NCBI RefSeq assembly: GCF_058153355.1
Contig: NZ_CM177019.1
Length of the DNA stretch: 64,000 nt
Reading direction: 5' to 3' (one strand)
Of the stretch, positions 9,306 to 46,296 are shown in pieces. How positions within the stretch are numbered: position 1 is the first letter of the stretch; each line of letters opens with the position of its first letter. Under the pieces are notes generated by a model. That model worked only from the letters and a program-made list of their open reading frames with translations, was not told where the DNA came from and searched no databases. The translations under genes were made by a program, and so were the position numbers.

Positions 9306-10745
9306 TTACGACTGTAAATAAACCACCTGGGTCTGCAGGTATTCATGCAAGCCATGTTTGCCATCTGCGCCGCCAATACCGGATTTACGCCATCCGGCGT
9401 GGAATCCTTGCATAGCTTCGAAGTTTTCACGGTTGATGTAAGTTTCACCAAACTTCAGCCCTTTAATAGCTTTCATCGCGACGTTCAGATTTTGGGTATA
9501 GAGTGATGAGGTCAGGCCGTAATCACTGTCATTAGCCATTGCGATAGCCTCTTCCAGCGTGTCAAATGCGACCACTGGCAGCACCGGGCCAAAGGTTTCC
9601 TCGTGCATAATCGACATTTCCTGACGAACATCCAGTAGCAATGTCGGCGGATAATAATATCCTTTCCCCTCTACTGCCTTGCCCCCCAACGCCACTCTCG
9701 CCCCCTCTTCGACTGCGCGCGCCACTTTTTGCTCGACCCTTTCCAGCGCCGCGGCGTTAATCAACGGCCCCATCGCAATGTCGTTGCGTTCAGCGGGGTT
9801 ACCAAATTGAACCGCCTGCATCGCTTCACCCAGCCGATTGACGAACTGATCATAAATGCCTTTCTGTACATAAACACGTTCTGCACAGTTACACACTTGC
9901 CCACTATTAATGACGCGTGAATCAACGATGGCTTTGACTGCCAGTTCAAGATCGGCATCGTCCATTACAATAGCTGGTGCTTTCCCCCCCAGCTCAAGAC
10001 ACACTTTGGTGATATTTTTCGCTGCAGTCGCCATGATCTTCTCACCAGCAGAAACACTGCCTGTCATACTGACCATTGCGACCTTTGGGTTACCCGCCAG
10101 TTCTTGCCCAACGGTTTCACCACGCCCCAGCACAAGGTTAAACACACCGCGTGGAAGGCCTATTTCATCGACAATTTTGGCAAAAGCAATCGCATTGTTT
10201 GGCGTAAATTCACTGGGTTTAATGACGATAGTATTACCGGTCAAAAGAGCGGGAGCCATTTTGCGGGCAATGAGGAAGAACGGGAAGTTCCACGGCAGAA
10301 TGCCGGTAGTCACGCCAAGCGCACGTTTAAACAGAAGAATATTTTCTCCTGGACGATCGCTTTGAATAATCTCGCCTTCATAACGCCGTGCCCACTCCGC
10401 CATGTAATCGATATAGTCCGCAGTAAAAGCCACTTCGACTTCAGACAGCTGCTGGATCTTGCCCCCTTCTTCAACAATCAGCGCACTAATTTCACTGGCG
10501 CGTTCGCGGATCCCGGCGGAGATTTTGCGCAACCAACTGGCGCGTTCAATGGCAGGCAACGCTTCCCATTCTGGTTGTGCACGTTCTGCTGCATCGATTG
10601 CCTTACGGGCATCCTCGGCCTGACCATCGGGAATGCGGGAAATGACCGCCTCTGTAGCAGGGTTTACCACATCAATCCATGCGTCTCCACGCCAGGTAAC
10701 AAACTGTCCATCTATATACATAGGATGTTGAACGGGTACTGACAT
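9306..10745 (-). CDS. aldA: lactaldehyde dehydrogenase (NAD-dependent aldehyde dehydrogenase A)
   Basis: 479-aa ORF, ALDH family; matches AldA. Confidence 0.95.
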   Translation of the reverse strand: MSVPVQHPMYIDGQFVTWRGDAWIDVVNPATEAVISRIPDGQAEDARKAIDAAERAQPEWEALPAIERASWLRKISAGIRERASEISALIVEEGGKIQQLSEVEVAFTADYIDYMAEWARRYEGEIIQSDRPGENILLFKRALGVTTGILPWNFPFFLIARKMAPALLTGNTIVIKPSEFTPNNAIAFAKIVDEIGLPRGVFNLVLGRGETVGQELAGNPKVAMVSMTGSVSAGEKIMATAAKNITKVCLELGGKAPAIVMDDADLELAVKAIVDSRVINSGQVCNCAERVYVQKGIYDQFVNRLGEAMQAVQFGNPAERNDIAMGPLINAAALERVEQKVARAVEEGARVALGGKAVEGKGYYYPPTLLLDVRQEMSIMHEETFGPVLPVVAFDTLEEAIAMANDSDYGLTSSLYTQNLNVAMKAIKGLKFGETYINRENFEAMQGFHAGWRKSGIGGADGKHGLHEYLQTQVVYLQS

Positions 10746-10940
10746 GGGCGACTCCTGTGATTTATATGTTTGTTTTTGGTAAATGCATTGTTAATTAACA
10801 TCAATCATCATAGAGACGGCATCGTGAAAGGACAATTCTGTGAAGGGCTTCATAAAAACAAGTGTAAAAGGAATAAAAGGCAGAAATAAACGTCAGGAGT
10901 CATGCCCGTTTGCAAACAGTTGTTCTCAAACGGGCAATTT

Positions 10941-11741
10941 TCAACGTAGCGAGCGACTTTCCATCGCCTCGATAAGCACAGCATCGTGTTTCAGCCTTTG
11001 CCATGCCTGGGTGACTTCTGCAGGAAAATCAACGTGAACGATAAAATCTCGCCCGCGTGGACCGTAGCCATCGCTATCATCGCGTAAACGTGGCAGCTCG
11101 CCAGTGAGTAGTGAGAGATAACGCTCAACCGGCCATAATCCTTGCAACGGATTAACAAAGATTACACTGTCTGCGTTGTTTCCTAGCTGAGGAACGAATC
11201 CGGGATAACTTAACCAGCGAGGTGCATCTGGATTGTCCCCGGTCATACGGCGGAACGTCGCCATCGTGCGCCGCTGCATGGTGGGGTCCTGAACAACGAT
11301 AGCCGTATGAACTCTTTCTACGGCCTGATTCAATAGCGCGATGCTAAAGCGTGCGTTTTCACCGCAGTTTGTTGACTGGTCTTCAATCCAGATTTTTTCA
11401 TGCGGAATGTGCCAGAACTGATGAGCGATATCCGCCAGGATGGTAGCTTCTGCTCTGCCAGTGGTGCGGATAGTGTTGTAGTGCGGATGCTGTGCGATGG
11501 CGCTATACAAAAAAGTTGTCGAGTGACCGATACCACCACTAATCAGTAGAGGAATTTGCTGATCGCGGGCAATCTTACATGCCGCATCGATAGTCGGCAT
11601 AACCGCATTGCCTGCAAGGATCACGCAATCGGCCTGATATGGCTCCTCTCCGGAGAAATCATCCTGCGCCAGCCACTGTCCGATAACATTTATGGCATCT
11701 ATGGTTGCCGTCGAAAGCGTCGGAAACGGGGTAATGTTCAT
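10941..11741 (-). CDS. ydcF: DUF218-family protein YdcF
   Basis: 266-aa [27 protein letters not shown]...; matches YdcF. Confidence 0.9.
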
Positions 11742-12155
11742 GGTTCCTCCTTATAGTTCCCTTAAGAATACTGCGTGAGATAATAATGAGAAGCGGAGCC
11801 ATCTGAAAGGTAGTTGATGCTTTTTCTATCGCGCCATCGCGAACCAGACACTTGTTTAAGTCATACACTATTTGCGGAGAAACTGTTGATAAAACATCAA
11901 TAACATAATGTTCTATCATTTTTAAATGACAGATAATCTGGTGTGATATTTATATAATATTCATTCTTATATTTCTCAATCAAGGGGAACATTTGGTATC
12001 CAGTGTATCGTCCTCATCAACCAGATGTGTTATAAGCACTTTACCTCGTTAATTTTAATATTACGAGTTACAGGACAAAACATCACTCGAATTTAGTCCA
12101 GTAACTCGTAGTAGCCAGAGTATACGTACCCATTGATAAAATGTCTGGCAATAAA

Positions 12156-13013
12156 TTAACCAGCTATACTCGCACTCGTCGGCCCTGTTTCAATACTACC
12201 CACAATATCAATAATGTGCCCCCAGAACATATCATCATCGTTATAATATAATGAATAATCTCTATTATAATCCATAGTCAACTCAACAAGATTTATTCTG
12301 CTAACAAACATATCTTCTGTAATTTCTTCATCTTCTTCATCTTGAAGCCAGTCATTGGCCAATTCAGTTAATTGTTCTGCGGCATATTGCCTAAACTCCT
12401 GATCTTTTTGTTGCATATGACTACATAAAAATCGCAGATTTTCAAAAGCCTGTTGCCAGGTATATCTATCATTCTTATCTACTTCCATAGATACAGAAAT
12501 ATTCTGATCATTCCATTTCACTTCCCCGCTAAAACAGGAGTAGTCTTTATTAAGCACGAAAGTCCCCAATTGCTGATCTTCAACAACAACTGGTTTGCGA
12601 TATTCTTTCTGAATATTGAGCAGTTCCTCACACTGAACATGACTTTCAAGAACCTCAAGAACATAAAACCGATTATAAAACTCGGCTAACTTTCCTTCCG
12701 GCACGGTCCTGTCAATCAAATCTCGTACTCTCAGGCGATATATACCACCAGACTGCATATTAAACGGCCACGCACAGCCTTGAGTTTTCTCATTTTCTTC
12801 TGTTATCAACCAGTTGAGTCGTCCATCTCCAACGTGAATTTCTCCCGTCGTCAGACTCTTCCAGGCGAGTAAGTGTTCAACCGCTGTCCAGTAATTATCA
12901 CCGTTACTCTTACCCGCGCCACCGCCAGTATCACTAAGAAGAACGATAATTTCTTCTTCTGTATCTTTAAATGTATGACTAAATTTTTTGTATTCTTCAG
13001 AATTTAAGTCCAT
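12156..13013 (-). CDS. orphan hypothetical protein (285 aa, acidic, no recognisable motif) in AT-rich islet
   Basis: single long ORF in a visibly AT-rich insert between ydcF and hrpA; ATG preceded by a GGGG SD-like run; no TM, signal peptide, HTH or nucleotide-binding motif seen. Confidence 0.6.
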   Translation of the reverse strand: MDLNSEEYKKFSHTFKDTEEEIIVLLSDTGGGAGKSNGDNYWTAVEHLLAWKSLTTGEIHVGDGRLNWLITEENEKTQGCAWPFNMQSGGIYRLRVRDLIDRTVPEGKLAEFYNRFYVLEVLESHVQCEELLNIQKEYRKPVVVEDQQLGTFVLNKDYSCFSGEVKWNDQNISVSMEVDKNDRYTWQQAFENLRFLCSHMQQKDQEFRQYAAEQLTELANDWLQDEEDEEITEDMFVSRINLVELTMDYNRDYSLYYNDDDMFWGHIIDIVGSIETGPTSASIAG

Positions 13014-13163
13014 TTTTGCCCCGGTGAAAAATAAATTTGATCAATAACATTGAGTGCCGCAGTAATGAATGTGTTATCGATAATTCAAAAATGACTGCGT
13101 ACGCCACAAGCCTACTCCCTACGCGACGTAAGGAGTACCGCCCTTGCTATTTTTCAGAATTCA

Positions 13164-22434: not shown

Positions 22435-24747
22435 TCAATACAACTCATCAAGTTTTCTCATCGCTTGTTCCCGTATTGCGCGCGTCTTACCGTTAAGCGC
22501 CAGCTGGCGAACTAAATCCAGTTCAGGGTTAACAAGCTCTAACGCCAGCAAAGGATTACGTTTCAGCCTCGCCTTCAATACATCAACTGGAAAGCGGGGA
22601 TTATTCATCGCCACAATCCACCACTCGGGATCAATTTCTGCCGCCAGTACTGCAGGCGGTGTGTGGCGGTTGCTAAGTGCGCCGAACTTGAAAAATGTGA
22701 GATTGCTTTTCGCCAGTGTACTCCACCATATACGATCCGGTTGTTTTGCCAGTACATCCAGTTGTGCTAACGCATCGGGGTCGAGTGCATAATAAACACG
22801 TAACGCTTCGTTAACCTGCGCACGGGAACTGTTTTCCTGCCTCAGAAAAAACTTCGCCCAAATATCATTGCGTGGCATGTTTTGCTGTAATTCCTTGAGA
22901 ACAACAGCGGGTAAATTATCCCAACTAATTAATGCACTCTCTAAAAAGTCCCAGTCGTCCGAACGTATCAGAGAGGTGGCATTTAATAGCATCTGGTCAT
23001 CAACTTCACCGTAGCTGATAAGCTCAGACAAAATCATATCAGCGCTGGTTTCATATGCATCTGAATCTGCTTTGGGATTATTTTTCCGATGCGATAAAGC
23101 ACGTTGCCAAATTTTTTGTTTCATCGACGTGCTCAGAAACTGATTTTTCGCCAGATTACTCCACCCCTCAGGATCGTTGAAACGTGTCAATAACCGTTGT
23201 AGAGCAGCGTCAGAGTGAATTACCTGCATATCCCGACAGCAAAAGTAGGCAGGGGATTTTTTCTCCATCCTTTTAACAAAATTAAACTGTAAGTTATCTG
23301 GCAATGCTAAAAATAACACACGTATTAGATCATCGTCATTCTCGAATTTTTGGTATAAATAGGCTGCAACTTTGTCACTCTCTTGTGGCGTCATCCGCAA
23401 TAATTGACCATGGTGTTTCATCTCTGCCAGCTTGAACGCTAAGCTTGTGACAACATTGTTTGATGAATCGTTCGCCAACTGCATTGCCTGATTGTAGGTG
23501 AGTTGTCCTCCAGCACCGACCTGACGAATAGAGGAATCATCACTGCGGATATAGCCATCAATAATGGATTCAGGCAATAACCACGCATCTTTATAAAGCT
23601 CCTGAATGATCATATCCCAATCTCTTTTCGCCAGAGTCATGACGATATCCAGAGGGAGATTTTCACGTAGCGCAAGATTCAACGGACCGACACCATCAGG
23701 TAGACGACTCATTCGCGTCATTATTTCGACAGAGAGCGGTTCACGGTCGAGCAACCCCAGAACAACAGGCTGGTAACCCAATTGCTGATCGGTCAACTCC
23801 AGAATCTCATTGTCAGGCATATATCTCGCCATACTTGCAATCGTTTGTTCATCATTGCTATTAATAAGTTGTTTGCGTAGGTTAGCTGAAATTCCTTTAA
23901 GCCTTGGGAGAGTTCGCATTACGGCAAGATCAAATGTCGCAATGTCTCGTCCTTCAAATGCAGCAACGTTGCCTTCATCCAGCATTTGCAATTCCTGCAC
24001 TAACTCAGGAGAAGGCTTAGGGCGAAACAGCGCTTCTTTTTTCATCTGATTACAGACATTCCCTGCCATGCGAATATTGCTTCGCTTAAAAATTTCTTTC
24101 AGAGCATCTTCATCATTTATTAGACCCCAATAATATGCATCAGGATTTATTATCATCAGCGCTTTTTTGACATTTTCAGTGTCATTTTTGTCACTCGCAC
24201 GGACCATGAATTCACTATTTGTCGAAGACGCAACAACAGGTGCAATTATGTCATTGATAAATATCCCACGCGCATTAATACTCCCCTTAATCGTAGACGG
24301 ATTATCGTAATATGAATCGATAAATACCAGTCCACTTGCATTTATCGAACCGGTAATTAACAGTGGTGAATCCGTAACTATATTCGTTGCCGTCACGTTA
24401 CCGAGAATAACCCATGGATTAGAAAGAGAGAAAGTGGAAATATTACCTTTGACTGTCAAATTACCAAGAACAATCAATTTTTGATTACTCTCTATATTAC
24501 CGTCTACCACTAAATCGCCACGATGCACTTTCCAGTCCGATGCAGATAAACCGAAGGGGACAAGATTCACGCTACTGTTGATAGCTTGTTCAACTTGCTG
24601 TTTATCTTCAGCGGTAGCCGCAGATAAAAATGGATTAATATCAACTGCATTTGCAACACATCGAAGTTCCGCCTGTACTGGAAGACTCAGGATAAACAGG
24701 GGAAGTAAACGTATCCAGCCGCAAATCCTGGCCTTAAACATATGCAC
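22435..24747 (-). CDS. ydbD: YdbD, large secreted protein of unknown function
   Basis: 770-aa ORF with N-terminal signal peptide (MHMFKARICGWIRLLPLFILSLPVQA); matches YdbD. Confidence 0.85.
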   Translation of the reverse strand: MHMFKARICGWIRLLPLFILSLPVQAELRCVANAVDINPFLSAATAEDKQQVEQAINSSVNLVPFGLSASDWKVHRGDLVVDGNIESNQKLIVLGNLTVKGNISTFSLSNPWVILGNVTATNIVTDSPLLITGSINASGLVFIDSYYDNPSTIKGSINARGIFINDIIAPVVASSTNSEFMVRASDKNDTENVKKALMIINPDAYYWGLINDEDALKEIFKRSNIRMAGNVCNQMKKEALFRPKPSPELVQELQMLDEGNVAAFEGRDIATFDLAVMRTLPRLKGISANLRKQLINSNDEQTIASMARYMPDNEILELTDQQLGYQPVVLGLLDREPLSVEIMTRMSRLPDGVGPLNLALRENLPLDIVMTLAKRDWDMIIQELYKDAWLLPESIIDGYIRSDDSSIRQVGAGGQLTYNQAMQLANDSSNNVVTSLAFKLAEMKHHGQLLRMTPQESDKVAAYLYQKFENDDDLIRVLFLALPDNLQFNFVKRMEKKSPAYFCCRDMQVIHSDAALQRLLTRFNDPEGWSNLAKNQFLSTSMKQKIWQRALSHRKNNPKADSDAYETSADMILSELISYGEVDDQMLLNATSLIRSDDWDFLESALISWDNLPAVVLKELQQNMPRNDIWAKFFLRQENSSRAQVNEALRVYYALDPDALAQLDVLAKQPDRIWWSTLAKSNLTFFKFGALSNRHTPPAVLAAEIDPEWWIVAMNNPRFPVDVLKARLKRNPLLALELVNPELDLVRQLALNGKTRAIREQAMRKLDELY

Positions 24748-24804
24748 TCCATGCCATTAAAAAAGAAACAAAAGGGAAATGCATCTTTCCCTTTTGTATA
24801 TTCG

Positions 24805-25665
24805 TTATTCTCGCGAAATACCATCCAACGTAGACAACACGTCCGCAGAAAGATGCAATTTTTCTGCGGCCATATTCTCCCGTAAATGAGCAACAGAAGA
24901 CGTTCCTGGGATCAGCAAAATATTCGGTGAACGCTGTAAAAGCCACGCCAGCGCCACCTGCATTGGTGTCGCATTAAGGCTCGCAGCAACATCGGAAAGC
25001 GTGGAGGATTGCAGTGGCGTAAAGCCCCCGAGCGGGAAGAACGGCACGTAGGCAATACCATCGCGGGCCAAAGCATCAATCATTGCGTCATCAGCACGAT
25101 GAGCAATGTTGTATTCGTTCTGCACACAGACAATTTCGGTAATCTTACGCGCCTCTGCAACCTGCGTCGGTGTGACGTTGCTCAGGCCAATATGTTTTAC
25201 CAGGCCTTGTTGTCGCATCTCTGCCAGCACGGTCAGGCTGGCTTCAATCGATCCTTCCGCTGGGCCATGACCATCCCCCATCATAACGCGCAGGTTAACC
25301 ACATCCAGTACGTCCAGTCCGAGATTACGTAGATTATCGTGTACCGCTTTTTGCAACTCTGCCGGAGAAAATGCAGGCAACCAGGAGGCGTCCTCTCCAC
25401 GCCGCGCCCCAATTTTAGTAACAATGGTCAGGTCGTCAGAGTAAGGATAAAGCGCTTCGCGGATAATCTGATTGGTGACGTGTGGACCATAAAAGTCACT
25501 GGTATCAATGTGATTAACGCCTAATGCCAGCGCCTCGCGCAGCACGGTTATAGCGACGTGGCGATCCCTTGGGGGACCAAAAACTCCAGGACCTGCCAGT
25601 TGCATCGCGCCATAACCAAGACGGTTAACGGATTTTGTACCGAGAGTAAATGTGTTGCTGCTCAT
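24805..25665 (-). CDS. pdxI: pyridoxine 4-dehydrogenase, aldo-keto reductase (YdbC/PdxI)
   Basis: 286-aa AKR-family ORF MSSNTFTLGTKSVNRLGYGAMQLAG... Confidence 0.9.
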   Translation of the reverse strand: MSSNTFTLGTKSVNRLGYGAMQLAGPGVFGPPRDRHVAITVLREALALGVNHIDTSDFYGPHVTNQIIREALYPYSDDLTIVTKIGARRGEDASWLPAFSPAELQKAVHDNLRNLGLDVLDVVNLRVMMGDGHGPAEGSIEASLTVLAEMRQQGLVKHIGLSNVTPTQVAEARKITEIVCVQNEYNIAHRADDAMIDALARDGIAYVPFFPLGGFTPLQSSTLSDVAASLNATPMQVALAWLLQRSPNILLIPGTSSVAHLRENMAAEKLHLSADVLSTLDGISRE

Positions 25666-25820
25666 CGCACCCTGCCCTGTAATAAAACGGATTAAGAAAA
25701 ATCAGTATAGAAACGAAAAGAGTTAAATAATGCGAAGGCGTAAACAAGATTACTGGATGAGTTCCTCTATTGTCCTGAAAAACACCAAAACAAAACGCGT
25801 CAAGCGCCGCATCCGGCAAT

Positions 25821-25850
25821 AAAAAACCGCAACCTGTATCAGCGTTGCGG
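25821..25850 (-). terminator. rho-independent terminator of ydbA (with adjacent partial REP)
   Basis: CCGCAAC...GTTGCGG hairpin followed by a 6-nt T run on minus strand just 3' of the ydbA stop; REP-like GCCGCATCCGGCA at 25805..25818. Confidence 0.6.
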
Positions 25851-25872
25851 TTTATGCATCACATACTAAAAA

Positions 25873-28800
25873 TTAGAACGTTTTCTTGAAGTTCAGCATC
25901 ACGCCTTTATCGCTGATACCATCCTCTTTCCAGTGGTAAGCATCCAGATTCAGCGAACTTTCTTTGCTGCTGTACTTCACGCCGACGCTTGCCAGACTGT
26001 TGATGCCGCCGCCCTTTTGCCCATCATCGACATTAAAGTGCTGGCTGCCTGCGCCTGCCAGGCTTGCCGTGCGCTGGCTCTTCGTGTAGCTCAGGTTCGG
26101 GCCGCCTTCCAGCGTGGCGTTCGCGCTCCAGCCGTCTTTGCCTGCGTAGTCCAGCTTCAGCCCGACGATACTGTCCACCGCCGTTTCGCTGCCGCTGTTC
26201 ATGCTCAGGTTAAAGTCTCCGGCATTACGCTCCTGATAACCGCCTTCCAGCGTGTGACGCAGTTTCACACCCGCATATGGCGTGATTTTCAGCCCTTCGC
26301 GCGGTTCAAAGGTTTTCGCCCCTTCGCTGCGGAACTCCAGGTACTGCTGTTTCACGTTGGTATCCGCCGTTTTGCTAACGTCGCCGTAAGCCACCGAACG
26401 GCTGCTGTCCAGTTGGTGAATATCGTAACGCAGCGCGTTATTCCAGCTCATACCGTTGTCAAAGGACATCTGATGCTTCAGGCCAAAGAACTGGCTGTAG
26501 CCGCCTGTAACACCATTATCACCCGCTTTCTGCGCACCATCGCCGTCCAGACGGGCGATACCGTACTCCAGGCTCATGGTCTGGTTTTCGCTCAGGTCGA
26601 GGGTTTTGCGCAGCGCCAGCATGTCGTACTCGGTATTATTCCCCAGCTCTGCACGCGGATCGCCTTTCGCCACCACGTTAAATGCCAGACCGTTGCCCAT
26701 CTTCGGTGCTGCGTCCGCCAACATGCTGAAGCGGTTACTCAACACGCGGGCCTCACGAAATACCGTGGTAGCCTGGCTCCCGCTGACTTGTTTCAGCGCG
26801 CTGTTCAGCTCTGCAGTGGTGCCAACGTTCAGACTGGTATACAGCTCGTTGTTGGTGTAACCCGCATCCAGCGCTTTTGCCACGTCATTCACTGAGGCAT
26901 CCGTCGCCACATCGGTGTAGGCGTTTTTGCTCATGGTCACGTCAACGTTGCCGCTGGCGTCGGTACTGCCTGTCGCCTGCCAGACAACAGATGTCGAAGT
27001 GATCGCTTGCGCATCAGTCAGGTTGCTGCCTTGCACCACATCATCAAAGCTGACGGTTTTGTCCGCCGTTCCCGCCGCAAAATCGGTGTTGATCTCCACG
27101 CCGTTCATACTGGCGTTATTGAGCATCAGCTTACCGGCGCTACCGTCGGCGTTCGTCCCCACCACGTAACCATTGAGGTTGTTCATGCCATCGTTGCGGC
27201 TAACGGAAGAAGAATGGGTGCCGTCGTATGGCGTAATGGTGGGTTCTTCCGGCGCGGTAAAGTCGACATAGTGCACTTCCGTACCGTCTCCGCCTTCGCC
27301 ACTACCCTCCATCGCCGTGCCAGATTGTTTAATTAATCCGGAACCATTCACGCTGTCGTCAATATAAACAGTGCCGTTGTTAACAATATGACCATTGCTC
27401 CCGAGCTTGCTGAAAGCCCAGGAGTTATTGGCGTAGATATTAATCGTACCGTTGTTTTCAACCACACCATCCGCTTTCGCGTCCGATGCTAATTGCATTC
27501 CAACCATACCTGTATGCGAAGTGCCTTCGCTACCAATATTGATAGTGCCATTGTTGACCATTTTTGCGCTGCCGTGCGCATTCATGGCGATGGTATTATT
27601 TTTATCAATATTGATAGTGCCATCGTTAATTGCCCGGCTACCGGCGTTATTATTTGGCGTCGTAACCTGGCCGTTAATCACACCTGTCGTACCGTTATAC
27701 AACGTATGCCCATTACCGCTGGTAGCGATATCAGCATCACCATTCACTGTACCCCAGTTGTTGAAATGCCCAGCCCAAAGTCCGTTATCAAGAAGATCGA
27801 CAACACCACCGACCAGGTTATTAAAGGTCGCGTTTTTATCAACCGAACCACTGTGAACCGTTCCTGCGTTATTGAAAGTGGCTGCGGCAGAAAAATTCAC
27901 TTTATTGACCGTTCCATCCGCTTCGTTATTCATCACGGCAGAAGCTGAGGCCCCTTTCCAGGCTGTTACCGTCCCGGCGTTATAAAACGTACTGGCCCAT
28001 TGTTCAACAGTGTTCATGGTGCCGGAATTGTTGATAACAGAACCCGCAACGGTTGTACCTACCAACCCGGTCACCGTACCTTCGTTAGTGAACACGCCGC
28101 CATCCACAGAAACGGTTTTTGTCGTGCCCTTATTGGTGTATTCCCCACCGGTTGCGATATCAACCTCATTAATACTGCCCGTGGTTTCATTGACCAAACG
28201 GCCAAAGTCAGCCACGGTGACAGGCCCCCCGGTAACCGTACCCGCGTTGGTTACCAGGGTTTCGGCGGTTGCCGTGATATCAGTCGTACCGCCATATGAA
28301 GACAGGTTAAGCGTTTCCCCGTCAGCCGAAATAATGTCACCATTTCTCCAGCTTAATGAAACAAACCCGTCAGTCGGGTTATAGGCGTTATTGTCCTGGC
28401 ATTTCCCAAAAGTACAGATGGTTCCGTAATTAACAATAGTCCCGCTGCCATCGTTATAGAACGCCTGCCCGTTTTCGGCATTGATATTGATGATGCCAGT
28501 CTGATCATTAATCGCAGTGGCACCATTGTAAACAGCCATGCCGACCAATTTATTTGGCCCCAGCGTATCATCATCATTTTCATTTACTTCCAGATTTATA
28601 GTTCCCTGGTTAATAATAATGTTACCTGGCTTCATCGCGGCCATACCGGCACCGGAATTATAGAGTGTTATTTCACCACCCTGCTGGTTAATGGCGGTAG
28701 AATTAACGCTGGCACCAGAACTGTCTGTACCCACAGCCATCCCGACAGCATAATCTTTGGCGCTGTCATGAGCGATATTGGACGCCAGACTGGAAGTATC

Positions 28801-31371
28801 GTTTTCATCAACCCATAATGCGTCAATGAAAATCTTACCCATATTGTCAATGGTTGAATTATTGGAGGCCAGCATGCCAACACTCCCCCGGCCGTACATT
28901 TGGATCTCACCGGCAGTATTATTTGAAGCGGTGCCATTGTTGCCTGCCGTCATCCCCGTCAGACTAATGACTTGATTATTAAAAATTAAAGGGTCACTCA
29001 AACCTTGAGCGTTCAGACTATTGAAAATACGTCCCTGCGCGAGTACCTTACTGGTGATGGCACTGTTATTAACAACTCGACCACCATAGACGCTCAAATA
29101 CGCAGAACTAGCAGAGTCTGATGTATTCCCCTCTACGCCGTAGATAGAAATCGTTACGTTGTTATTATTTACAGCTAGCGACTCTTCACCAGTAGCCCTG
29201 GCAAAGCCAATATTACCCAGTTCTACATCACCATTATTTATCATCTGCGAACCGGAATTCACCAGTACAACCTGTGATGTGTCACTATTATAATGATCAA
29301 ATGTATTTATATCTTTTAGGATAAAAGTGGCGTTGCGGCCAAGTTCTAAATGGGCTCGGTTATTCAGTTGAATGATATCGCCTAATCCAAGCGGAAAAAC
29401 ACCACTGATTGTTGAATCCCCATTTAGATACAGAGTAGAGTGCCCATCGATTTTGATAACAGGCGTATCGCCATAACCATTACGTTTTAAAGCAGGTGTG
29501 GAGCCATCCTGTAGAGTATTTTCTTCGCCAGCTAAATGGATACCACCATTAATTTCGACGGTATTACCGTCACCCGACACAACCAGACCATTAATATTTT
29601 CCTGGCTGCCATCCATTTCATTATAGATACGAGAAGTGACTTCACTGTCAGCAACAACGGTAAGATTGCCATTTAATACGATATTATTGTCGTGTCCCTG
29701 CACCTGAATGCCAACAGAAGGGGTAAAAAAGTCATTTATTGAATGCTCTCCGGCCTGATTTTTATCCACCAGAATATTACCGGTAATTTCAACTTCATTG
29801 CCATCACCGGCTACATTTACCCCTGTCGCAACACTGCCGGTCACATTAAGCTCATTTGTCGCCAGCGTCATGGCGTTATTATTTCCAGAGACATCCAGAC
29901 CGGTTGAATAATCCCCTACATCCACACGGCCAGCCAGAGAAATCAGACCATCATCTCCGATGATGCGAATCCCGGTACTGAAATTATCAGCAATGATGTC
30001 CCCCACATTGATAAGGGTAGAATGATTACCCTCAATCAGAATCCCTGTCGCATTGGCCTCTGAACTACCATTACTGACGGAAATATCCCCCCTGTTAATG
30101 AACGTCGACGCATCACCACTGAGAGAAACACCCTGCGAATTTTCATCCACGACCGTTATATTTCCTTTGTTGCTGACGATCGCGCCATTACCCTCAACAT
30201 CAATACCCCGTGCAGCATTGCTAACGTATAAATCCCCTTCCTGTATAACCGTCGCATTATTACCAACGATTTTGCTGCCCGTTGAATTTTGCCCATCAAC
30301 CGTCATATGTCCTTTATTATCGGTCCTGACATCATTACCGCTAATAACGGCCCCTATTCCGCCGTTATTGACAGTGGAGTCGCCAGTGTTATTTAAGATT
30401 GTACGATCGCCATTGACGATAACCGCCGTGCCAGCATCGACCACCGTCTGACCGTTATTATTGATGGTTATATTATCGCCGGTCAGGATACCGACCACCG
30501 AACCTTCACCGACAGCCTCTGTTTTACCCTCGTTTGTCAGCGCAATGTTGTTACCATTAATCATCATCACCGTGCCGCCATTCAGGGCCGTGTTACCGCC
30601 CTGGTCAGTGATAATCGCATCATTAACGGTAATTATTCTGCCCGTTGTTCCATCAGACACGACACTGGCTAACTGTGTGACGTGGAGTTTACCTTCGTCA
30701 TCGTAGCGCCATTCCATATCACCTGTGGTACTCACACCACTAAACATGGCGGTATGAGTCTCTTCATGGTTTTCCCACTCAGTCACAATGGTTTTTCGGC
30801 CATCTTTTGCCGTCAGCGTGTAGCTACCATCTTCATTTTGGGTATAAGTGAACGTCGCCCCGCGAATCTTCAGGGTTTGCGCGTCCTCGTCCCATGTCAC
30901 ATTGTTATCAAAGACAACGGGTTCTGTTCTCGGGGGGTCAACATCATCACCGCTATTGTCGGGTGGAGTAACATTACCGCCGTTATCTGGCTTTACAGGT
31001 ATACCTGAATCTTCATCACTGGGAACGGGTAGCGGTAGAGGGCCATTATCATCTGGCGGTATGGGCTGGGGAAAAGAAGAGTGAGCAGAATGATCATTGT
31101 CATGAGACAATTCAATCACTGCGAGTGTTGCCAGTACCGCCGTGGCACCTAATGCCAGTAACGAGCTGAAACCATTATTTGTAACAACAGCACATTTTTC
31201 TGGCACTGTTTTCAACTTCGTTGACGGTCGGGCGTGCCCTTCTGACTGACATGTCATTTGAGAGCTTCTGCGCATACTGTCTGCACTCTCGCCTTCTGTT
31301 ATTTCCGCCCCCCAGCTTTGGCCACTTAACGCTATAGCGATACACGCTGATAATAACGTTTTCTTTTGCAT
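25873..31371 (-). CDS. ydbA: autotransporter adhesin YdbA, intact (signal peptide, long repetitive passenger, C-terminal beta-barrel)
   Basis: single 1832-aa ORF; N-terminal signal peptide; Gly/Asn/Thr-rich repeats; C-terminus ends in aromatic residue (...MLNFKKTF) typical of autotransporter barrels. Confidence 0.85.
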   Translation of the reverse strand: MQKKTLLSACIAIALSGQSWGAEITEGESADSMRRSSQMTCQSEGHARPSTKLKTVPEKCAVVTNNGFSSLLALGATAVLATLAVIELSHDNDHSAHSSFPQPIPPDDNGPLPLPVPSDEDSGIPVKPDNGGNVTPPDNSGDDVDPPRTEPVVFDNNVTWDEDAQTLKIRGATFTYTQNEDGSYTLTAKDGRKTIVTEWENHEETHTAMFSGVSTTGDMEWRYDDEGKLHVTQLASVVSDGTTGRIITVNDAIITDQGGNTALNGGTVMMINGNNIALTNEGKTEAVGEGSVVGILTGDNITINNNGQTVVDAGTAVIVNGDRTILNNTGDSTVNNGGIGAVISGNDVRTDNKGHMTVDGQNSTGSKIVGNNATVIQEGDLYVSNAARGIDVEGNGAIVSNKGNITVVDENSQGVSLSGDASTFINRGDISVSNGSSEANATGILIEGNHSTLINVGDIIADNFSTGIRIIGDDGLISLAGRVDVGDYSTGLDVSGNNNAMTLATNELNVTGSVATGVNVAGDGNEVEITGNILVDKNQAGEHSINDFFTPSVGIQVQGHDNNIVLNGNLTVVADSEVTSRIYNEMDGSQENINGLVVSGDGNTVEINGGIHLAGEENTLQDGSTPALKRNGYGDTPVIKIDGHSTLYLNGDSTISGVFPLGLGDIIQLNNRAHLELGRNATFILKDINTFDHYNSDTSQVVLVNSGSQMINNGDVELGNIGFARATGEESLAVNNNNVTISIYGVEGNTSDSASSAYLSVYGGRVVNNSAITSKVLAQGRIFNSLNAQGLSDPLIFNNQVISLTGMTAGNNGTASNNTAGEIQMYGRGSVGMLASNNSTIDNMGKIFIDALWVDENDTSSLASNIAHDSAKDYAVGMAVGTDSSGASVNSTAINQQGGEITLYNSGAGMAAMKPGNIIINQGTINLEVNENDDDTLGPNKLVGMAVYNGATAINDQTGIININAENGQAFYNDGSGTIVNYGTICTFGKCQDNNAYNPTDGFVSLSWRNGDIISADGETLNLSSYGGTTDITATAETLVTNAGTVTGGPVTVADFGRLVNETTGSINEVDIATGGEYTNKGTTKTVSVDGGVFTNEGTVTGLVGTTVAGSVINNSGTMNTVEQWASTFYNAGTVTAWKGASASAVMNNEADGTVNKVNFSAAATFNNAGTVHSGSVDKNATFNNLVGGVVDLLDNGLWAGHFNNWGTVNGDADIATSGNGHTLYNGTTGVINGQVTTPNNNAGSRAINDGTINIDKNNTIAMNAHGSAKMVNNGTINIGSEGTSHTGMVGMQLASDAKADGVVENNGTINIYANNSWAFSKLGSNGHIVNNGTVYIDDSVNGSGLIKQSGTAMEGSGEGGDGTEVHYVDFTAPEEPTITPYDGTHSSSVSRNDGMNNLNGYVVGTNADGSAGKLMLNNASMNGVEINTDFAAGTADKTVSFDDVVQGSNLTDAQAITSTSVVWQATGSTDASGNVDVTMSKNAYTDVATDASVNDVAKALDAGYTNNELYTSLNVGTTAELNSALKQVSGSQATTVFREARVLSNRFSMLADAAPKMGNGLAFNVVAKGDPRAELGNNTEYDMLALRKTLDLSENQTMSLEYGIARLDGDGAQKAGDNGVTGGYSQFFGLKHQMSFDNGMSWNNALRYDIHQLDSSRSVAYGDVSKTADTNVKQQYLEFRSEGAKTFEPREGLKITPYAGVKLRHTLEGGYQERNAGDFNLSMNSGSETAVDSIVGLKLDYAGKDGWSANATLEGGPNLSYTKSQRTASLAGAGSQHFNVDDGQKGGGINSLASVGVKYSSKESSLNLDAYHWKEDGISDKGVMLNFKKTF

Positions 31372-32017
31372 GAGAAATCCTTTTCAATGAATGACATTTC
31401 AAATAATAAAATATGAGTAATAGATAAGAAATAGCCACAGGCTGTGTCATGATTTAATGCCTGCTCTTGAAATTTTATTTAGCAATCCCAGAACATTCAA
31501 CTTAATTAGTATTTCGAAACCTCAATGTAGACACATAAAAAACAAATTATTCGATTACTTAGGCTATTTGTTGCATTAATACACATCCTCTAACAATAAT
31601 CAGACAAAAAGCAATGTCAGCGTCAAATTGGGTAGCTGATTCATATTACTGACCACTCCGGAAATTCATTCATCGTGAAAATATTAACATTTCAACCATG
31701 TTCCATTTAATCAACCCACTGAAAATCTGGAGGTTATCTACTGCGGTTTGTTGTTGACTGCCCCTGACAGGTTTACCAGGCGTTGACAGAAGATGAGGCT
31801 TGCAAGATGCTAAAAACAATGTGGTGTTACAAGCAATCCCATAAACCTCGTAACTTCACTTAAATGAGCGATGCCGTCCATATTTGGGTTGACTATAAAA
31901 ACCCTTAATATTGAGGTTGATGATGATATTCATGATGGCATTGGAAAAATAGGACACCCATAAAATATCTATACAGCCTTTAAATTAAATCATTGAAATA
32001 TCGCTGTTGCATAGTGC

Positions 32018-32344
32018 TTATTTTTGCAACCATTTCCCGTTAATTCCCTGCACATATTCCCCCGGTTTGGCCCGAGCTACAAGCTTTTGTCCGGCAAGCT
32101 TCGCGATATCATCTACCGATACATTATTTTGCTTTGCCAGTTGTTGATAACTCACTTTACGTGCGGCATTAATCTCGGTTACTAATTTCTCTGTTTCAGC
32201 ATCCGTTTTCAACGCAACCAAATAACCGTTAAATGTTTCACCTACCCGCCCCTGAATTCTGGCCTCGTCCAGTGTTAATGCCACTACATTGCTGCTTACC
32301 AGTCCAACAAGAAACGCACAAAGAAGTAATGTTTTCTTCATCAT
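32018..32344 (-). CDS. ydbL: YdbL (DUF1318 periplasmic protein)
   Basis: ORF to 32422; 108-aa product from MMKKTLLLCAFLVGL (signal peptide); last gene of ydbH-ynbE-ydbL. Confidence 0.85.
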   Translation of the reverse strand: MMKKTLLLCAFLVGLVSSNVVALTLDEARIQGRVGETFNGYLVALKTDAETEKLVTEINAARKVSYQQLAKQNNVSVDDIAKLAGQKLVARAKPGEYVQGINGKWLQK

Positions 32345-32348
32345 CCCC

Positions 32349-32534
32349 TCAGAAAAGATCGCTACGGGTTTTGAGTAAATCCTCGACATCTTTGTCTGCC
32401 TTAATGATGATCTCATGCTCAATTTTAACGTTCATATTGATAGTGATCGGTTCCTTAGGTGCAGCGACTTCAATGCGAGGCGTACAGCCAACCAGCATAA
32501 AAGATGACGTCAACGCAGCCAGTAAAATTTTCAT
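32349..32534 (-). CDS. ynbE: lipoprotein YnbE
   Basis: 61-aa ORF MKILLAALTSSFMLVGC... with lipobox; start overlaps ydbH stop by 4 nt. Confidence 0.85.
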   Translation of the reverse strand: MKILLAALTSSFMLVGCTPRIEVAAPKEPITINMNVKIEHEIIIKADKDVEDLLKTRSDLF

Positions 32535-35170
32535 TGTTTTTCCTCACACCCTTTTCCTTGCGGACAGCCATTTTCCGGCAGACGCGCGTTCTGCTCCAAC
32601 CATGCCTGGAGATTATCGCCAAAGCGTAAACTGCGCCACAGGGTAAAAATATTCTCTTCATGATGGTAATTAAGGTTTACCGTACCACTTTTACCGTCGA
32701 CGCGACTGGTACCTGTAATATTGGCCTGCATGGTTAACACACCGAGATTATCTAAATTAATTTTTGTCGATGAACGGTTAATTTCCATATAGCGCAACCA
32801 GTTAATTGCAGAACCCGCGGTCATATTGTCTTTCACCACCGCATCTGCGGTGTCTTTATCCAGCCGCAAGGTCATTGGTCCGCTATTTGCCAGCCAGCCG
32901 TCTTTAACTATCCATTTTTCATTGTTCAGCCATAAAGGCAATGCCCCACTAAATGCCCCGGACATGGCGAATTGTTTCGGATTGACGGCGCTAACCAGTT
33001 CGCTGGATGAGAGATTATTCAGCCGCAACAGCGCCGGGTCATGTTGCGGCATGCGTAATTGTTTCATCAGCACGTTACCGCCTAACACATCGACGCTAAC
33101 ATCGGTCAACAACAATGGTTCGTCTTCACTCCACGGATAACGCCCTTGCAAATCAGCCGTAATATTTTTCGCTGTCACCAGATTAATCACTTCGGCAATT
33201 CGCAACGTAACGGGGCCGCGAGTCCCCAGATGCCAGGCTCCATCGGCAAAACGGAAAGGCAGGACAAAATCGACACCGTTAACCTGATTATCTGGCATCC
33301 AGGCACTACCGCCTTTCAACACACCGTGCCCTCCCGCGCGGAATCCTTGTTCAGGCGCAGCAGAAAATGCGACCTGGGCATACAGTTCGCCATCGCGTAA
33401 GTTCATCTTCCAGTCGGGTGGCACCAGCGGCTGGAATACGGTCAGTGATTGTTTAGGCCACCAGGCGTTACCGCGCAGACGAATACCGTCCCAGCGACCA
33501 TTTACCCGAACCGGGCCAATCTCACCAGCATGTAAATCGCCTTTAAAGAGGAAATACGTCGGATCGCGTCCATCGACGCTAAATTTTAAGGTTGATGGCG
33601 GTAACACACTGCCGCCAGTGAACAGCGTTTGCCCGGCGTCCAGTGACAGCGCGCCGCTAAAGGAGGGATGCTGTGCGTCACGTACCCAGACGACGGGCTT
33701 GTCGAGAATTAATCGCGGCTTTTCTACCGTCATCGTACCGTATTGTAACTGGTCGAAACCGGTTGAGAGATCGGTCAGCGTAATCGTGCTGTCATGCCAC
33801 TCACCTTTTCCTGCGACATCCCAGGTGGCATTCATCGGTGTAAAACTCCCTTTTCCCCAGTAGCGCCACTGCCAGCGGCCAGCGTCAGGGAGAAAATCAT
33901 TCGCCAGCCCATCCATATGCAGTACGAAATCGCCCAGTTCATTTTCATGCGCCTGCAAAATGGCCTGCAAACGTCCGTCAACACCACGTTGGGTGACTTT
34001 TACACCCGCTAAAGGCCAGCGGATTTCATCAATATCCAGCGAATCGATGACTCTTCCCTTCGAACGTAATAACGCGCCTGGCTCAAAGGCCAGCGTTGGG
34101 TCAGTCAGACTTCCGCTTAGCTGCGCAGGTAAACGGGCATATAAAATGAGGTCCGCCTGTTTCGCTTCACCGGTCAGCTGCAAAGGCAGCTGGCTGTTAT
34201 CCATACTTAATTTTCCTGGGCCAAAATTAAGCACCGCGTTGCCCTTACCCGCTTGCCCCTGGGTCAGCACACTCAGTCGTCCGCTGACCAGAGCGTTCTC
34301 AAGCCCTGCCTGCCAGTTGTCGACTTTGACACCCAGTCGTCCACTCAAAGGAAAACCTGCATACGGCCAGCTCCAGCGACCATCGCTTACGGTCAATTGT
34401 TGGCGAGTAATTTGCCACGGCAGATCGAGCAACGGATCGCCGTTATCCCGTGCCAGCACAATCAATTGCCCGCTATTTTCCTGCCAGTCCAGCTCGGCAT
34501 CCACCAGTGAAGGCTCCTGCGGCAAGTTTAACGTCGCAGTAGCATGACCCCTTACAGGAAGTCCATCCGGCACTAGCGGCATAGTAAATTCCCCCACCAG
34601 TTTAACCGGCGGCTGATTTTCAAACGCAGCGACATCCAGTTCGCTGACTGTAAGTTGTTGCCCTTTCAGCTGGCCTTGAAATTTAACTTTTTCGCCCTGA
34701 TAACGCAGTTGCTGGATATCGGAGTTTAATGCGAGAGAGAGTTTTCCCTGCCATTCCTGCCAGGGAGAAAAAATCAGTTTATCGATATTGATCCAGGTGT
34801 TAGGCAACATGGCCTGCCACTGCGCGAGGGTTTTTGGAGCGGCTGGCGATTGCTCCGTCTGCGGCAATTTCGCCAGACAAGCAGAATCAAGTTCTACCGT
34901 GCCGACGTTCAATAACCAGCGGCTGGGATGAGAAAGGCTGGCGTTGGTGATATGTGCAAGCTGACAATCTCCTACCAGATAACGGAGATCGGGAATGATT
35001 AAACCTTTACGCGTAATGCGTGGGCTTTCATCTAAAGCAATACGTGTGCCGAGCGGTAGCCAGATGCCCGCCAGCGTGGGAACCCACAAGCCGAGCGTCA
35101 TCAGCAGCGTCAACGGCACAAGAATAATCAGTAATAACAGCGCGAGAACGGCTTTATATTTACCCAGCAT
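32531..35170 (-). CDS. ydbH: YdbH, AsmA-like large envelope protein
   Basis: 879-aa ORF with N-terminal membrane anchor MLGKYKAVLALLLLIILVPLTLLM...; matches YdbH. Confidence 0.9.
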   Translation of the reverse strand: MLGKYKAVLALLLLIILVPLTLLMTLGLWVPTLAGIWLPLGTRIALDESPRITRKGLIIPDLRYLVGDCQLAHITNASLSHPSRWLLNVGTVELDSACLAKLPQTEQSPAAPKTLAQWQAMLPNTWINIDKLIFSPWQEWQGKLSLALNSDIQQLRYQGEKVKFQGQLKGQQLTVSELDVAAFENQPPVKLVGEFTMPLVPDGLPVRGHATATLNLPQEPSLVDAELDWQENSGQLIVLARDNGDPLLDLPWQITRQQLTVSDGRWSWPYAGFPLSGRLGVKVDNWQAGLENALVSGRLSVLTQGQAGKGNAVLNFGPGKLSMDNSQLPLQLTGEAKQADLILYARLPAQLSGSLTDPTLAFEPGALLRSKGRVIDSLDIDEIRWPLAGVKVTQRGVDGRLQAILQAHENELGDFVLHMDGLANDFLPDAGRWQWRYWGKGSFTPMNATWDVAGKGEWHDSTITLTDLSTGFDQLQYGTMTVEKPRLILDKPVVWVRDAQHPSFSGALSLDAGQTLFTGGSVLPPSTLKFSVDGRDPTYFLFKGDLHAGEIGPVRVNGRWDGIRLRGNAWWPKQSLTVFQPLVPPDWKMNLRDGELYAQVAFSAAPEQGFRAGGHGVLKGGSAWMPDNQVNGVDFVLPFRFADGAWHLGTRGPVTLRIAEVINLVTAKNITADLQGRYPWSEDEPLLLTDVSVDVLGGNVLMKQLRMPQHDPALLRLNNLSSSELVSAVNPKQFAMSGAFSGALPLWLNNEKWIVKDGWLANSGPMTLRLDKDTADAVVKDNMTAGSAINWLRYMEINRSSTKINLDNLGVLTMQANITGTSRVDGKSGTVNLNYHHEENIFTLWRSLRFGDNLQAWLEQNARLPENGCPQGKGCEEKQ

Positions 35171-43067: not shown

Positions 43068-43123
43068 GATTCATTTCGCAAATGTGCTGACATTTTCCCC
43101 TCTAATCATTACAATTTAAATTT

Positions 43124-43735
43124 ATGAATTATGCATTGATAATCGCTATTATAATATCGTTCCCCTGTGCATTATTATCAGTTTTTCTGGTATTAAAAGA
43201 CTGGGCGCTAATAGGAGATGCAATGAACCACGCAATGTTTCCTGGCATAGTTCTAGCCTGGATTATAGGTATGCCGCTGGGAATTGGTGCATTTATTGTA
43301 GGACTGTCTTGTGCAATTGCAACTGGCTATCTGAAAGATAATAGCATCATAAAGAAAGATACCATTATAGGTATCGTTTTTTCAGGAATTTTTGTCTTGA
43401 CTATCAACAGGCACAAGTCAGCGGATTACAGATATCATTATTACATTACGGTTTACTCTGCATGGTATCGCCTACCATTTTTGCCACATTAAAAGCAGTC
43501 GGAATTATTCTGTCTATATACTATTAATAGCTCCAGGGTCTATTGCTGTCCTCATCACGCATCGCTTTCATAAGACATTACTTATCGCCGTAACGATATC
43601 AATAACAATATCAGGCGTATGGTTATTATATTTTCTCGACAGAGCCCCAGCGCCGACAATCGTCCTCTTATTTGCTGTAGCATTTCTTTTCGCGCTTATA
43701 ATAATCAATTTTCGGAAACAATAATCTCAACAGTA
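43124..43735 (+). pseudogene. decayed ABC-3 family (Mn/Zn/Fe) transporter permease gene, frameshifted and internally truncated
   Basis: frame of 43124..43492 encodes an ABC-3 permease-like N-terminus (DAMNHAMFPGIVLAW, TIIGIVFSGIFVLTI); permease-like C-terminus (LLIAPGSIAVLITHRFHKTLLIAVTISITISGVWLLYFLDRAPAPTIVLLFAVAFLF) continues in another frame to stop at 43733..43735; AT-rich. Confidence 0.5.
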
Positions 43736-44991
43736 GAATAAAGAGGCAAATCAATCATTACATATATAAGATGGTGCTAATATTGCACCGCCTTTAAATT
43801 GAACTTTATCCTTTCACCCTTACACAATTTAAGGAATGCAGATGACTATTTTATCAGCACCCAGCCTTTTTCCTGGTAATCGAAAACTTGAAAATCATTA
43901 ACTCTAAGAAATTCTGCCAAATCGTTGAAATTACTTTAAATTAGACTCGAACAAATCAACCCCTGATGGGGCTTTTACTTATCCATTTAATCGGGTATAT
44001 ATCGACCTCCATCTGCCCGCCTCAGATTCGTACCTGGTGGAGGTCTTTTTTCGTTACCTCTTTCCCCCTTTAGTTCAGTATAAAATCATCAAACTAATGC
44101 TGTTCACACTATTTACCTCCAGCATTCTATATAAATAATAGAAATAAAAACCCCAATACATAGTGCATTGGCATGACCAAACATCAATGCCATTATACTC
44201 GCCTCTGTTAAATACTCGCTAGTTAATATGATAGGCACGCATGATATAACAATCCATATGCTAATACATAAATACACCAGTATTTTTCTCATAGTCAGTC
44301 CCTGTGATTAACAATCAAGGCATAGTTAAGCATATTTCACATTCAAACGTAAACATTATTAATAACATTATGTCAATCGAACTGACATCACGATTCAAGC
44401 CCTCTTCAGACTGAAGGCTAGAGCAGCGTAGAACATTTCAAAACAATACACTGAAAAAATACTTGAACAAAAAACTTAATTCTTTTTTATTGTGAACTTT
44501 AGTAATTTTGTCATGCAACTCTTTATTACATTTAGGCCTATCTTATTTCATGGCAACGCAAATACAGGACCATTTCTTGTGCTATGGATAAGTAATAAGC
44601 TAGTTACATCTTATTAAGAGAACCATTTTCACATATCAAAATATCATCACCACCCACAATGAATTAAGTATTTTTCTTATTCTTTAGATTAGATACGTAA
44701 TGAATCCCTAACTCCATTCGGGTGTCATGGCTCTTTCATTTGAAATACATTCATATCCAATGTAATATTTCTATGCGCAAATATAACTACCGACCATACT
44801 CATCATTTATTACAGAGAATTATTTTATTCACCGAAAAGTTTCACAAAATATCCCCTGATAGAAAACTAAAAAACACTGCATAATATCGCTATTCTGGCA
44901 CTTGCGAAAAATTATATTCTGCACCTGTTGTAGCGTTCTATTTCTCCGCCTGGCAACGAATGCACAATGTCCGCCACAGTTTCTGTTCTAA

Positions 44992-45309
44992 TTTCTTCCT
45001 GTGTTACCGCATCCTGTACGGGTAGCGCAACACCAGCATGCTAAGCAAGGCTTTCCCATCAGATTTCACTACGACTATTTGGGAGCGAGATGGAATGCAG
45101 CAGTAAAACGTGCTGGTATTCGCCGCCGTAATCCGTACCATACGCGACATACTTTTGCCTGCTGGCTGTTGACGGCAGGAGCGAACCCGGCATTTATAGC
45201 CAGCCAGATGGGGCATGAAACTGCGCAGATGGTGTATGAAATTTACGGTATGTGGATTGATGACATGAACGACGAACAGGTAGCTATGTTGAATGCGCGG
45301 TTATCGTAG
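44992..45309 (+). pseudogene. 3' fragment of a tyrosine-recombinase (Rac-type prophage integrase) gene
   Basis: open frame encodes only the integrase C-terminal catalytic region (RRNPYHTRHTFACWLLTAGANPAFIASQMGHETAQMVYEIYGMW) with no N-terminal domains; directly upstream of ttcA where K-12 carries intR. Confidence 0.7.
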
Positions 45310-45360
45310 TTGCAAAGTTTGCCCCCAATTTGCCCCATTTAGTACCAGAGAACTGAAATA

Positions 45361-46296
45361 ATGCAAGAAAATCAAAAGAATACGAAGAAAGAGATATACA
45401 ATCTGAACAAATTACAAAAACGTCTGCGTCGTAACGTGGGCGAAGCCATTGCTGACTTCAATATGATTGAAGAAGGCGATCGCATCATGGTTTGCCTCTC
45501 CGGGGGTAAAGACAGCTATACCATGCTGGAGATTCTGCGCAATTTGCAGCAAAGCGCGCCAATCAATTTTTCGCTGGTGGCTGTTAACCTCGATCAAAAG
45601 CAACCGGGCTTCCCGGAACACGTTCTGCCCGAGTATCTTGAAAAGCTGGGCATTGAGTACAAGATTGTGGAAGAGAACACTTACGGTATCGTGAAAGAGA
45701 AGATTCCGGAGGGCAAAACCACTTGCTCACTGTGTTCTCGTCTTCGTCGCGGAATTCTTTACCGTACCGCAACGGAACTGGGAGCGACGAAGATCGCGCT
45801 GGGTCACCATCGTGACGATATCCTGCAAACGTTGTTCTTAAATATGTTCTACGGCGGCAAGATGAAAGGTATGCCTCCGAAACTGATGAGCGATGATGGC
45901 AAACATATTGTGATTCGTCCGCTGGCCTACTGCCGCGAGAAAGATATTCAGCGCTTTGCCGATGCAAAAGCGTTCCCGATTATTCCTTGCAACCTGTGCG
46001 GTTCACAGCCTAACCTGCAACGTCAGGTGATTGCTGACATGTTGCGTGACTGGGATAAACGTTATCCGGGGCGTATCGAGACGATGTTCAGCGCGATGCA
46101 GAATGTGGTGCCGTCGCATCTGTGCGATACCAACCTGTTCGATTTCAAAGGCATTACCCACGGTTCTGAAGTGGTTAACGGGGGTGATCTGGCGTTTGAT
46201 CGCGAAGAGATCCCTCTACAACCGGCGGGTTGGCAGCCTGAAGAAGATGAAAATCAGTTGGATGAGTTACGACTGAATGTGGTGGAAGTGAAATAA
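45361..46296 (+). CDS. ttcA: tRNA-cytidine(32) 2-sulfurtransferase
   Basis: 311-aa ORF with PP-loop SGGKDS and CxxC motifs; matches TtcA. Confidence 0.95.

Follow-up and report, generated by a model that had tools for sequence, protein, structure and literature searches.

In the window, by which we mean the whole 64-kb stretch of DNA that was analysed, the genes ydbA and ydbL lie on the minus strand exactly 646 bp apart, with a spacer at 31372-32017 between them. ydbL is followed by ynbE and ydbH, also on the minus strand, and then by ldhA on the plus strand. The features of the locus are as follows.

24811-25671, minus strand: pdxI (ydbC), conserved core gene beyond ydbA
25873-31371, minus strand: ydbA/BigA-family gene, 1832 aa, positional allele of the K-12 ydbA pseudogene
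31372-31687, minus strand: ydbA-proximal half of the spacer, presumed 5' UTR and promoter region of ydbA
31688-32017, no strand: ydbL-proximal orphan half of the spacer, 330 bp
32018-32344, minus strand: ydbL, lineage-specific allele
32349-32534, minus strand: ynbE
32531-35170, minus strand: ydbH, conserved core flank

The same arrangement is annotated in EC42405, a public genome nearly identical to the window. The autotransporter gene there has the same start, ydbL lies at the equivalent of 32018-32344 and is followed by ynbE, ydbH and ldhA, and the 646-bp interval equal to 31372-32017 carries no annotated gene. An earlier note on this DNA had put ydbA directly beside ydbL across a 646-bp spacer, and the open reading frames and the EC42405 annotation both give exactly these coordinates. 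It had also stated that about 19 kb, from feaR to paaXY, separate the two genes in K-12, and this was right. In K-12 MG1655 the distance from the stop of ydbL to the start of ydbA is 19,185 bp, and the interval holds feaR, feaB, tynA, paaZ, paaA-K, paaX, paaY and the small ORF ynbG, with no annotated integrase or tRNA. The divergence of the window from K-12 is raised over about 24500-33000 and is at background level outside that block; over the 3' 900 bp of ydbH it is still raised, with 95.4% identity to K-12.

Is the cluster really missing, or is it hidden by the assembly or placed elsewhere on the chromosome? When the 18 proteins of the K-12 island were searched against the 64-kb window by tblastn, the only match was aldA, which encodes a paralogous aldehyde dehydrogenase with 33% identity to FeaB, and none fell in the spacer, where the search for remnants of cluster genes gave only chance-level matches (tblastn E<=10, tblastx E<=1). 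A chimeric query was then made of 2 kb of the window junction and 350-bp probes from feaB, tynA, paaA and paaK. On each of the 17 complete chromosomes with this junction it matched at one place only, the junction itself, and the four probes had no match on any of them. Moreover, a protein identical to the window's YdbL is recorded in 81 blocks of public assemblies, and at each of the nine distinct places read a BigA-like gene coding for 1830 or 1832 aa begins 646 bp downstream of ydbL, split in two at one of the nine. The claim that the cluster is missing is therefore upheld, for the window and for the 17 chromosomes sharing its junction, and the fear of an assembly artefact is put to rest. 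Since the identical junction is found in 17 complete chromosomes free of the probes and in at least nine further independent assemblies, a misjoin hiding the cluster has a negligible probability.

TynA, FeaB and FeaR serve the conversion of 2-phenylethylamine to phenylacetate, and the Paa enzymes make up the phenylacetyl-CoA pathway. Because these roles are established and the cluster is absent, no growth is predicted on either compound: the strain should be unable to convert 2-phenylethylamine to phenylacetate or to degrade phenylacetate.

The spacer was described as AT-rich, and its GC content is indeed 0.348, against about 0.45-0.55 in the flanks. Does it contain the two ends between which the cluster lies in K-12? 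It was compared with the 171-bp ydbL-feaR flank and the 330-bp paaY-ydbA flank of K-12 by alignment with MAFFT, sensitive blastn and tblastx, and no homology to either was found. Similarity to K-12 ends at the stop codon of ydbL (window 32020) and comes back only at the ribosome-binding site and the signal-peptide codons of ydbA, becoming robust only from about 27560 inside that gene. Such an alignment had been proposed in the earlier note for locating the breakpoint and any direct repeats; it leaves nothing to map, and neither can be defined because the spacer has no homology to either flank. Repeats within the spacer are only 10-20 nt long with two copies each, as expected by chance, and no meaningful direct or inverted ones are among them. 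There was no match in an Rfam scan (E<=1), no terminator-like hairpin in a terminator scan and no similarity to plasmids and phages, and a z-score of -0.05 was obtained when the DNA downstream of ydbL was folded. The short ORFs of the spacer (<=49 aa) were considered as genes and rejected as being without support; ynbG of K-12 is not conserved.

These results can be compared with what different kinds of junction should look like. A clean empty site, or the junction of a precise deletion, would keep both flanks abutting each other, and the window keeps neither. A deletion scar would hold truncated cluster genes, and the spacer holds none. The integration site of a mobile island would be marked by att sites or direct repeats, by a tRNA or integrase next to it and by remnants of mobile elements; the spacer has only chance-level repeats and no plasmid, phage or Rfam match, and in the K-12 interval no integrase is annotated.

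The two halves of the spacer differ in their relatives. The ydbA-proximal 316 bp (31372-31687) show distant homology, at 60-73%, to the ydbL-ydbA spacer of the SMS-3-5 type, and the ribosome-binding site together with the first 32 bases of ydbA is identical to SMS-3-5. A match to the sigma-70 consensus, TTGAAT-17-TAAAAT, lies at 31500-31472, and its -35 hexamer is conserved in SMS-3-5; as promoter-like hexamers are no commoner in the spacer than in shuffled sequence, it should be taken as a candidate promoter only. The earlier placement of the ydbA promoter region in the spacer holds in that the spacer must carry the 5' region of ydbA, and we infer that the ydbA-proximal half is the promoter and 5' UTR of this gene. 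The other half (31688-32017) has no homolog detected outside the 17 complete genomes of the lineage and appears to be intergenic DNA without detectable function. Silencing by H-NS, as suggested in the earlier note, is plausible for a spacer with 35% GC, judged from its composition. In the one paper found that mentions ydbA, H-NS and autotransporter together, ydbA transcription is reported to go up in an rpoZ mutant, and its passages dealing with ydbA tie no H-NS binding to the gene.

In the window ydbA is intact and encodes 1832 aa, while its K-12 counterpart is a pseudogene disrupted by an IS element. The Pfam domains BigA_N and BigA_beta, common to the adhesins BigA of Salmonella and YdbA of E. 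coli, are both found in the protein (PF25784, 89.6 bits with a cutoff of 24.5; PF25783, 91.3 bits with a cutoff of 24.3). The NCBIfam BigA model aligns to residues 441-1832 up to the last position of the model, the C-terminal translocator included, with a score of 986 bits that is far under the 3400-bit cutoff set for the whole protein. PF03797 (Autotransporter) is recorded on a homolog of the window YdbA. By its domains the product belongs to the BigA/YdbA autotransporter family, which is marked by a BigA_N beta-barrel, a BigA beta-sandwich and an autotransporter domain at the C-terminus. Conservation along the gene is very uneven. The signal peptide and the ribosome-binding site are conserved between the window and K-12, divergence is high in the passenger part (about 27560-31300), and the C-terminal part has 85-94% DNA identity to K-12 and SMS-3-5. 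The N-terminal part of the protein has only 31-42% amino-acid identity to K-12 YdbA, and for its first 450 aa the best identity among the matches listed, which do not include a known near-identical protein, is 53%. As a separate observation, the middle of ydbA (window 27000-28500) has only 68-92% identity even to EC42405, against about 100% for the 2.9 kb at the 5' end of the gene; this pattern points to variation, or to recombination, inside the passenger repeats. Also, in 2020CK-00188 ydbA is split into ORFs of 1054 and 780 aa.

The neighbouring ydbL is divergent too. Its DNA identity to the alleles of E. coli sensu stricto is 88-92%, compared with about 97% for the neighbouring genes, and it is only 78-79% identical to the alleles of E. 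albertii, E. whittamii and Escherichia sp. E1V33. The window protein ends in GKWLQK and that of K-12 in GKWVRKF. Among ordinary E. coli, ydbL evolves at about 3-5 times the rate of ldhA. It is fast-evolving across the species: between K-12 and the B2-type strain UPEC132 ydbL has 94.5% identity (ldhA 98.9%), and between K-12 and SMS-3-5 it has 93.3% (ldhA about 99%).

To which lineage does the window belong? Over 9.8 kb of adjacent core genes, the window is closest (98.3-99.4%) to 18 genomes, namely the 17 junction carriers and the strain N96, and all other E. coli have at most 97.8%. EC42405 and 2013C-4282 are members of cryptic clade I (PMC10100065, Okuno et al.). The window comes from a minor, clade I-like lineage of E. 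coli, with 2 of the 17 junction genomes tied to clade I by the literature. It is none of these strains itself. EC42405 was suspected at first, but the identity to it varies along the window in a mosaic, from about 100% over 28500-32500 to 95-99% in the rest.

N96 is the exception in this lineage. On either flank its identity to the window is about 99%, and at 23706-44171 of its locus record it has ydbL-feaR...paaY and then directly pdxI, with no ydbA. Its cluster is uniformly 96-98% identical to that of K-12, and its best identity to any of the 3172 other paa-bearing complete genomes is 97.1%; it is the most divergent of them and as divergent as the core genes of the lineage. In N96 ynbE is 100% identical to K-12 and ydbL 97.5%, and the sequence changes over from lineage type to K-12 type near the boundary of ynbE and ydbH. 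We considered whether N96 had recently imported the cluster from ordinary E. coli, and rejected this because the cluster is at most 97.1% identical to that of every other genome. An import from E. coli sensu stricto is nevertheless hinted at by its values for ynbE, identical to K-12, and ydbL.

How common are these states in the species? Among 5426 complete E. coli genomes, 3097 hold at least 80% of the K-12 island, and 3348 are matched by one or more of the four probes (feaB, tynA, paaA, paaK). About 38% have none, in agreement with the statement of the earlier note that the cluster is variably present. In 1037 genomes the match to the island query reaches only 80-90% identity, and the examples sampled from them are short scars or flank joins. 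The SMS-3-5 spacer is found in 47 genomes and the window's spacer in 17 (0.3% of the 5426), at 98.5-100% identity.

This variation is known. Goldstone et al. [quoted passage not shown] 2017 (PMC5422975) found paa missing in phylogroups B2 and E. The polymorphism of these two studies shares with the window the locus (ydbH-ynbE-ydbL to pdxI/ynbA-D), the absence of the cluster and a variably intact ydbA. Carriage was scored there mainly in phylogroups A and B1, unlike the clade I-like junction of the window, and no description of a clade I-type junction was found in the searchable literature. The window thus adds one more allele, restricted to its lineage, to a presence/absence polymorphism that was already known. 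New is only the nature of the junction, a lineage-specific replacement haplotype instead of a clean "empty site".

Junctions of several other types exist at the locus, and the spacers can be sorted into three or more families that do not align with one another: K-12, UPEC132 and ZH063; the O157-like RM19259, E1V33 and E. whittamii; and the window and SMS-3-5. In both UPEC132 and ZH063 ydbL lies directly beside ydbA without a functional cluster, as in the window, but these two strains keep K-12-like flanks and the window keeps neither. UPEC132 has a clean flank-to-flank join, in which 64 bp of the left flank of K-12 (97%) run directly into 310 bp from the right flank (80%). ZH063 has a scar with remnants feaR' and 'paaY. 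The junction of SMS-3-5 (phylogroup F) has no cluster remnants, like that of the window; the ydbA-proximal 316 bp are homologous at 60-73%, and the ribosome-binding site and the first codons are identical in both. Its spacer, however, is 457 bp long, and its ydbL-proximal half and ydbA passenger region are unrelated to those of the window. The reading of the junction as the empty site of an island is not supported by these comparisons, given that the spacer lacks both K-12 flanks and any meaningful repeats, and that true joins and scars are found in other strains.

Outside E. coli the cluster is also found beside ydbL. Two species of Silvania have ydbL-feaR-feaB-tynA-paaZ-paaA in the order and orientation of K-12, and Yokenella regensburgei and "Enterobacteriaceae bacterium 89" have at least ydbL-feaR-feaB in that order. 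Because the order is kept in these genera, the position of the cluster beside ydbL predates Escherichia. The word "island" used in the earlier note is then doubtful, as other genera keep ydbL-feaR-feaB and N96 carries a deeply divergent copy. Within the genus, E. albertii (locus 4977-6380) and E. whittamii (locus 10001-11875) have ydbL directly before pdxI with neither cluster nor ydbA, and E1V33 has ydbL beside a ydbA-like gene with no cluster there. A search of genome contigs with YdbL gave 19 loci, useful as outgroups, none of them with the window's spacer.

Some side observations concern the second spacer family. About 290 bp of the E. whittamii spacer is homologous to the ydbA upstream region of E1V33 and the O157-like strains. 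Between RM19259 (8589-9517) and the cryptic-clade strain E1V33 (10001-10733), ydbL, ynbE and the spacer are 98-99.5% identical and the nearby ldhA only 89%, a pattern that looks like introgression between species at this same locus. A ydbA-ydbL-ynbE query from the window finds only 60-80% identity in about 355 complete E. coli genomes (RM19259, 79.9% over ydbL-ynbE), and these genomes may carry the allele of the RM19259/E1V33 type.

How, then, did the haplotype arise? We consider it likely that the window carries a lineage-specific haplotype of a hypervariable region, in which the absence of the cluster is derived and its flanks were overwritten. The interval from ynbE/ydbL to pdxI would be the haplotype of this lineage, with a divergent ydbL, the 646-bp spacer, an intact but divergent ydbA and no trace of the cluster, and it would be one of several deeply diverged alleles of the known hypervariable region. 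Homologous recombination in the core genes on either side may exchange such alleles as entire cassettes. The cluster would have been lost or replaced and its flanks overwritten, and the junction would be neither a scar nor the empty site of a discrete insertion or deletion. The absence is most likely derived because ydbL-feaR-feaB is kept in other genera and N96 has its own old cluster; loss or replacement is more likely than a site that was never occupied. The raised divergence over 24500-33000 fits an old or imported haplotype block, as expected. There is an argument against derived absence: 17 of the 18 sampled relatives lack the cluster, and parsimony within the lineage would make absence ancestral and N96 the recombinant. 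The absence is perhaps old within the genus, since there is no cluster beside ydbL in E. albertii, E. whittamii or E1V33 either. These same facts, with the lack of cluster-gene remnants in the spacer, would speak for a pristine empty site, in a lineage that never had the cluster while K-12-like strains gained it between ydbL and ydbA. We think this improbable. The spacer cannot be the insertion target because it has no sequence in common with either flank of the occupied site, and junctions that do have K-12-like flanks exist elsewhere, in UPEC132 and ZH063. Nor are there direct repeats, or an annotated integrase or tRNA in the K-12 interval. In addition, three other genera keep at least ydbL-feaR-feaB, in Silvania with the order continuing through paaA, and the cluster copy of N96 is divergent at the level of its lineage.

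Another scenario is that the block of ydbL, spacer and ydbA came from an unsampled, distant Escherichia donor and replaced the resident cluster in one recombination. The block is flanked by decaying divergence, ydbL is distant from all E. coli alleles by comparison with its neighbouring genes, and the near identity of RM19259 to E1V33 over ydbL, ynbE and the spacer gives a precedent at this locus. No donor was found, however: the ydbL alleles of E. albertii, E. whittamii and E1V33 are still further away, and the spacer matches nothing else. The 8% divergence of ydbL is also what vertical inheritance within a clade I-like lineage could give, and because ydbL evolves several times faster than ldhA among ordinary E. 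coli, introgression is not required. This scenario is possible, but we hold it to be rather unlikely. A two-state cassette locus between ynbE and pdxI is more doubtful than either of these alternatives. In such a locus of this lineage an intact ydbA adhesin gene with its 646-bp upstream region and the cluster as in N96 would never occur together and would be swapped by homologous recombination in the core genes on either side. If it were true, there might be a niche-linked trade-off between adhesion and the catabolism of aromatic amines. With as little probability, a regulatory element or small RNA specific to the lineage could lie in the 330-bp orphan half of the spacer.

What does the locus mean for the comparison of genomes? 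Under the reading we prefer, a lineage-specific haplotype with derived absence, it indicates that "presence/absence" in E. coli can mean the exchange of old, mutually unalignable haplotypes instead of simple insertion or deletion. This is relevant to calls of "islands" and "empty sites" in pan-genome studies. The 646-bp spacer, or its orphan half, could be used as a PCR or k-mer marker, since its 17 carriers among 5426 complete genomes make up all but one of the 18 nearest relatives. Beyond such bookkeeping the junction has little importance.

Two other segments of the window vary among related genomes. The 2.26 kb at 43107-45368, between uspF and ttcA, are absent from EC42405, N96 and K-12 and present in strains such as NC101 and UPEC132. 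They contain a truncated ABC-3 permease fragment (43124-43492) and the C-terminal fragment of a phage integrase (45001-45309) that abuts ttcA, and are probably what is left of an element that had integrated at ttcA, the Rac site in K-12. The other segment, of roughly 1.3 kb at 11810-13151 between ydcF and hrpA, is absent from EC42405 and N96, and within it a 285-aa protein with DUF7021 and DUF2262 is encoded on the minus strand at 12156-13013.
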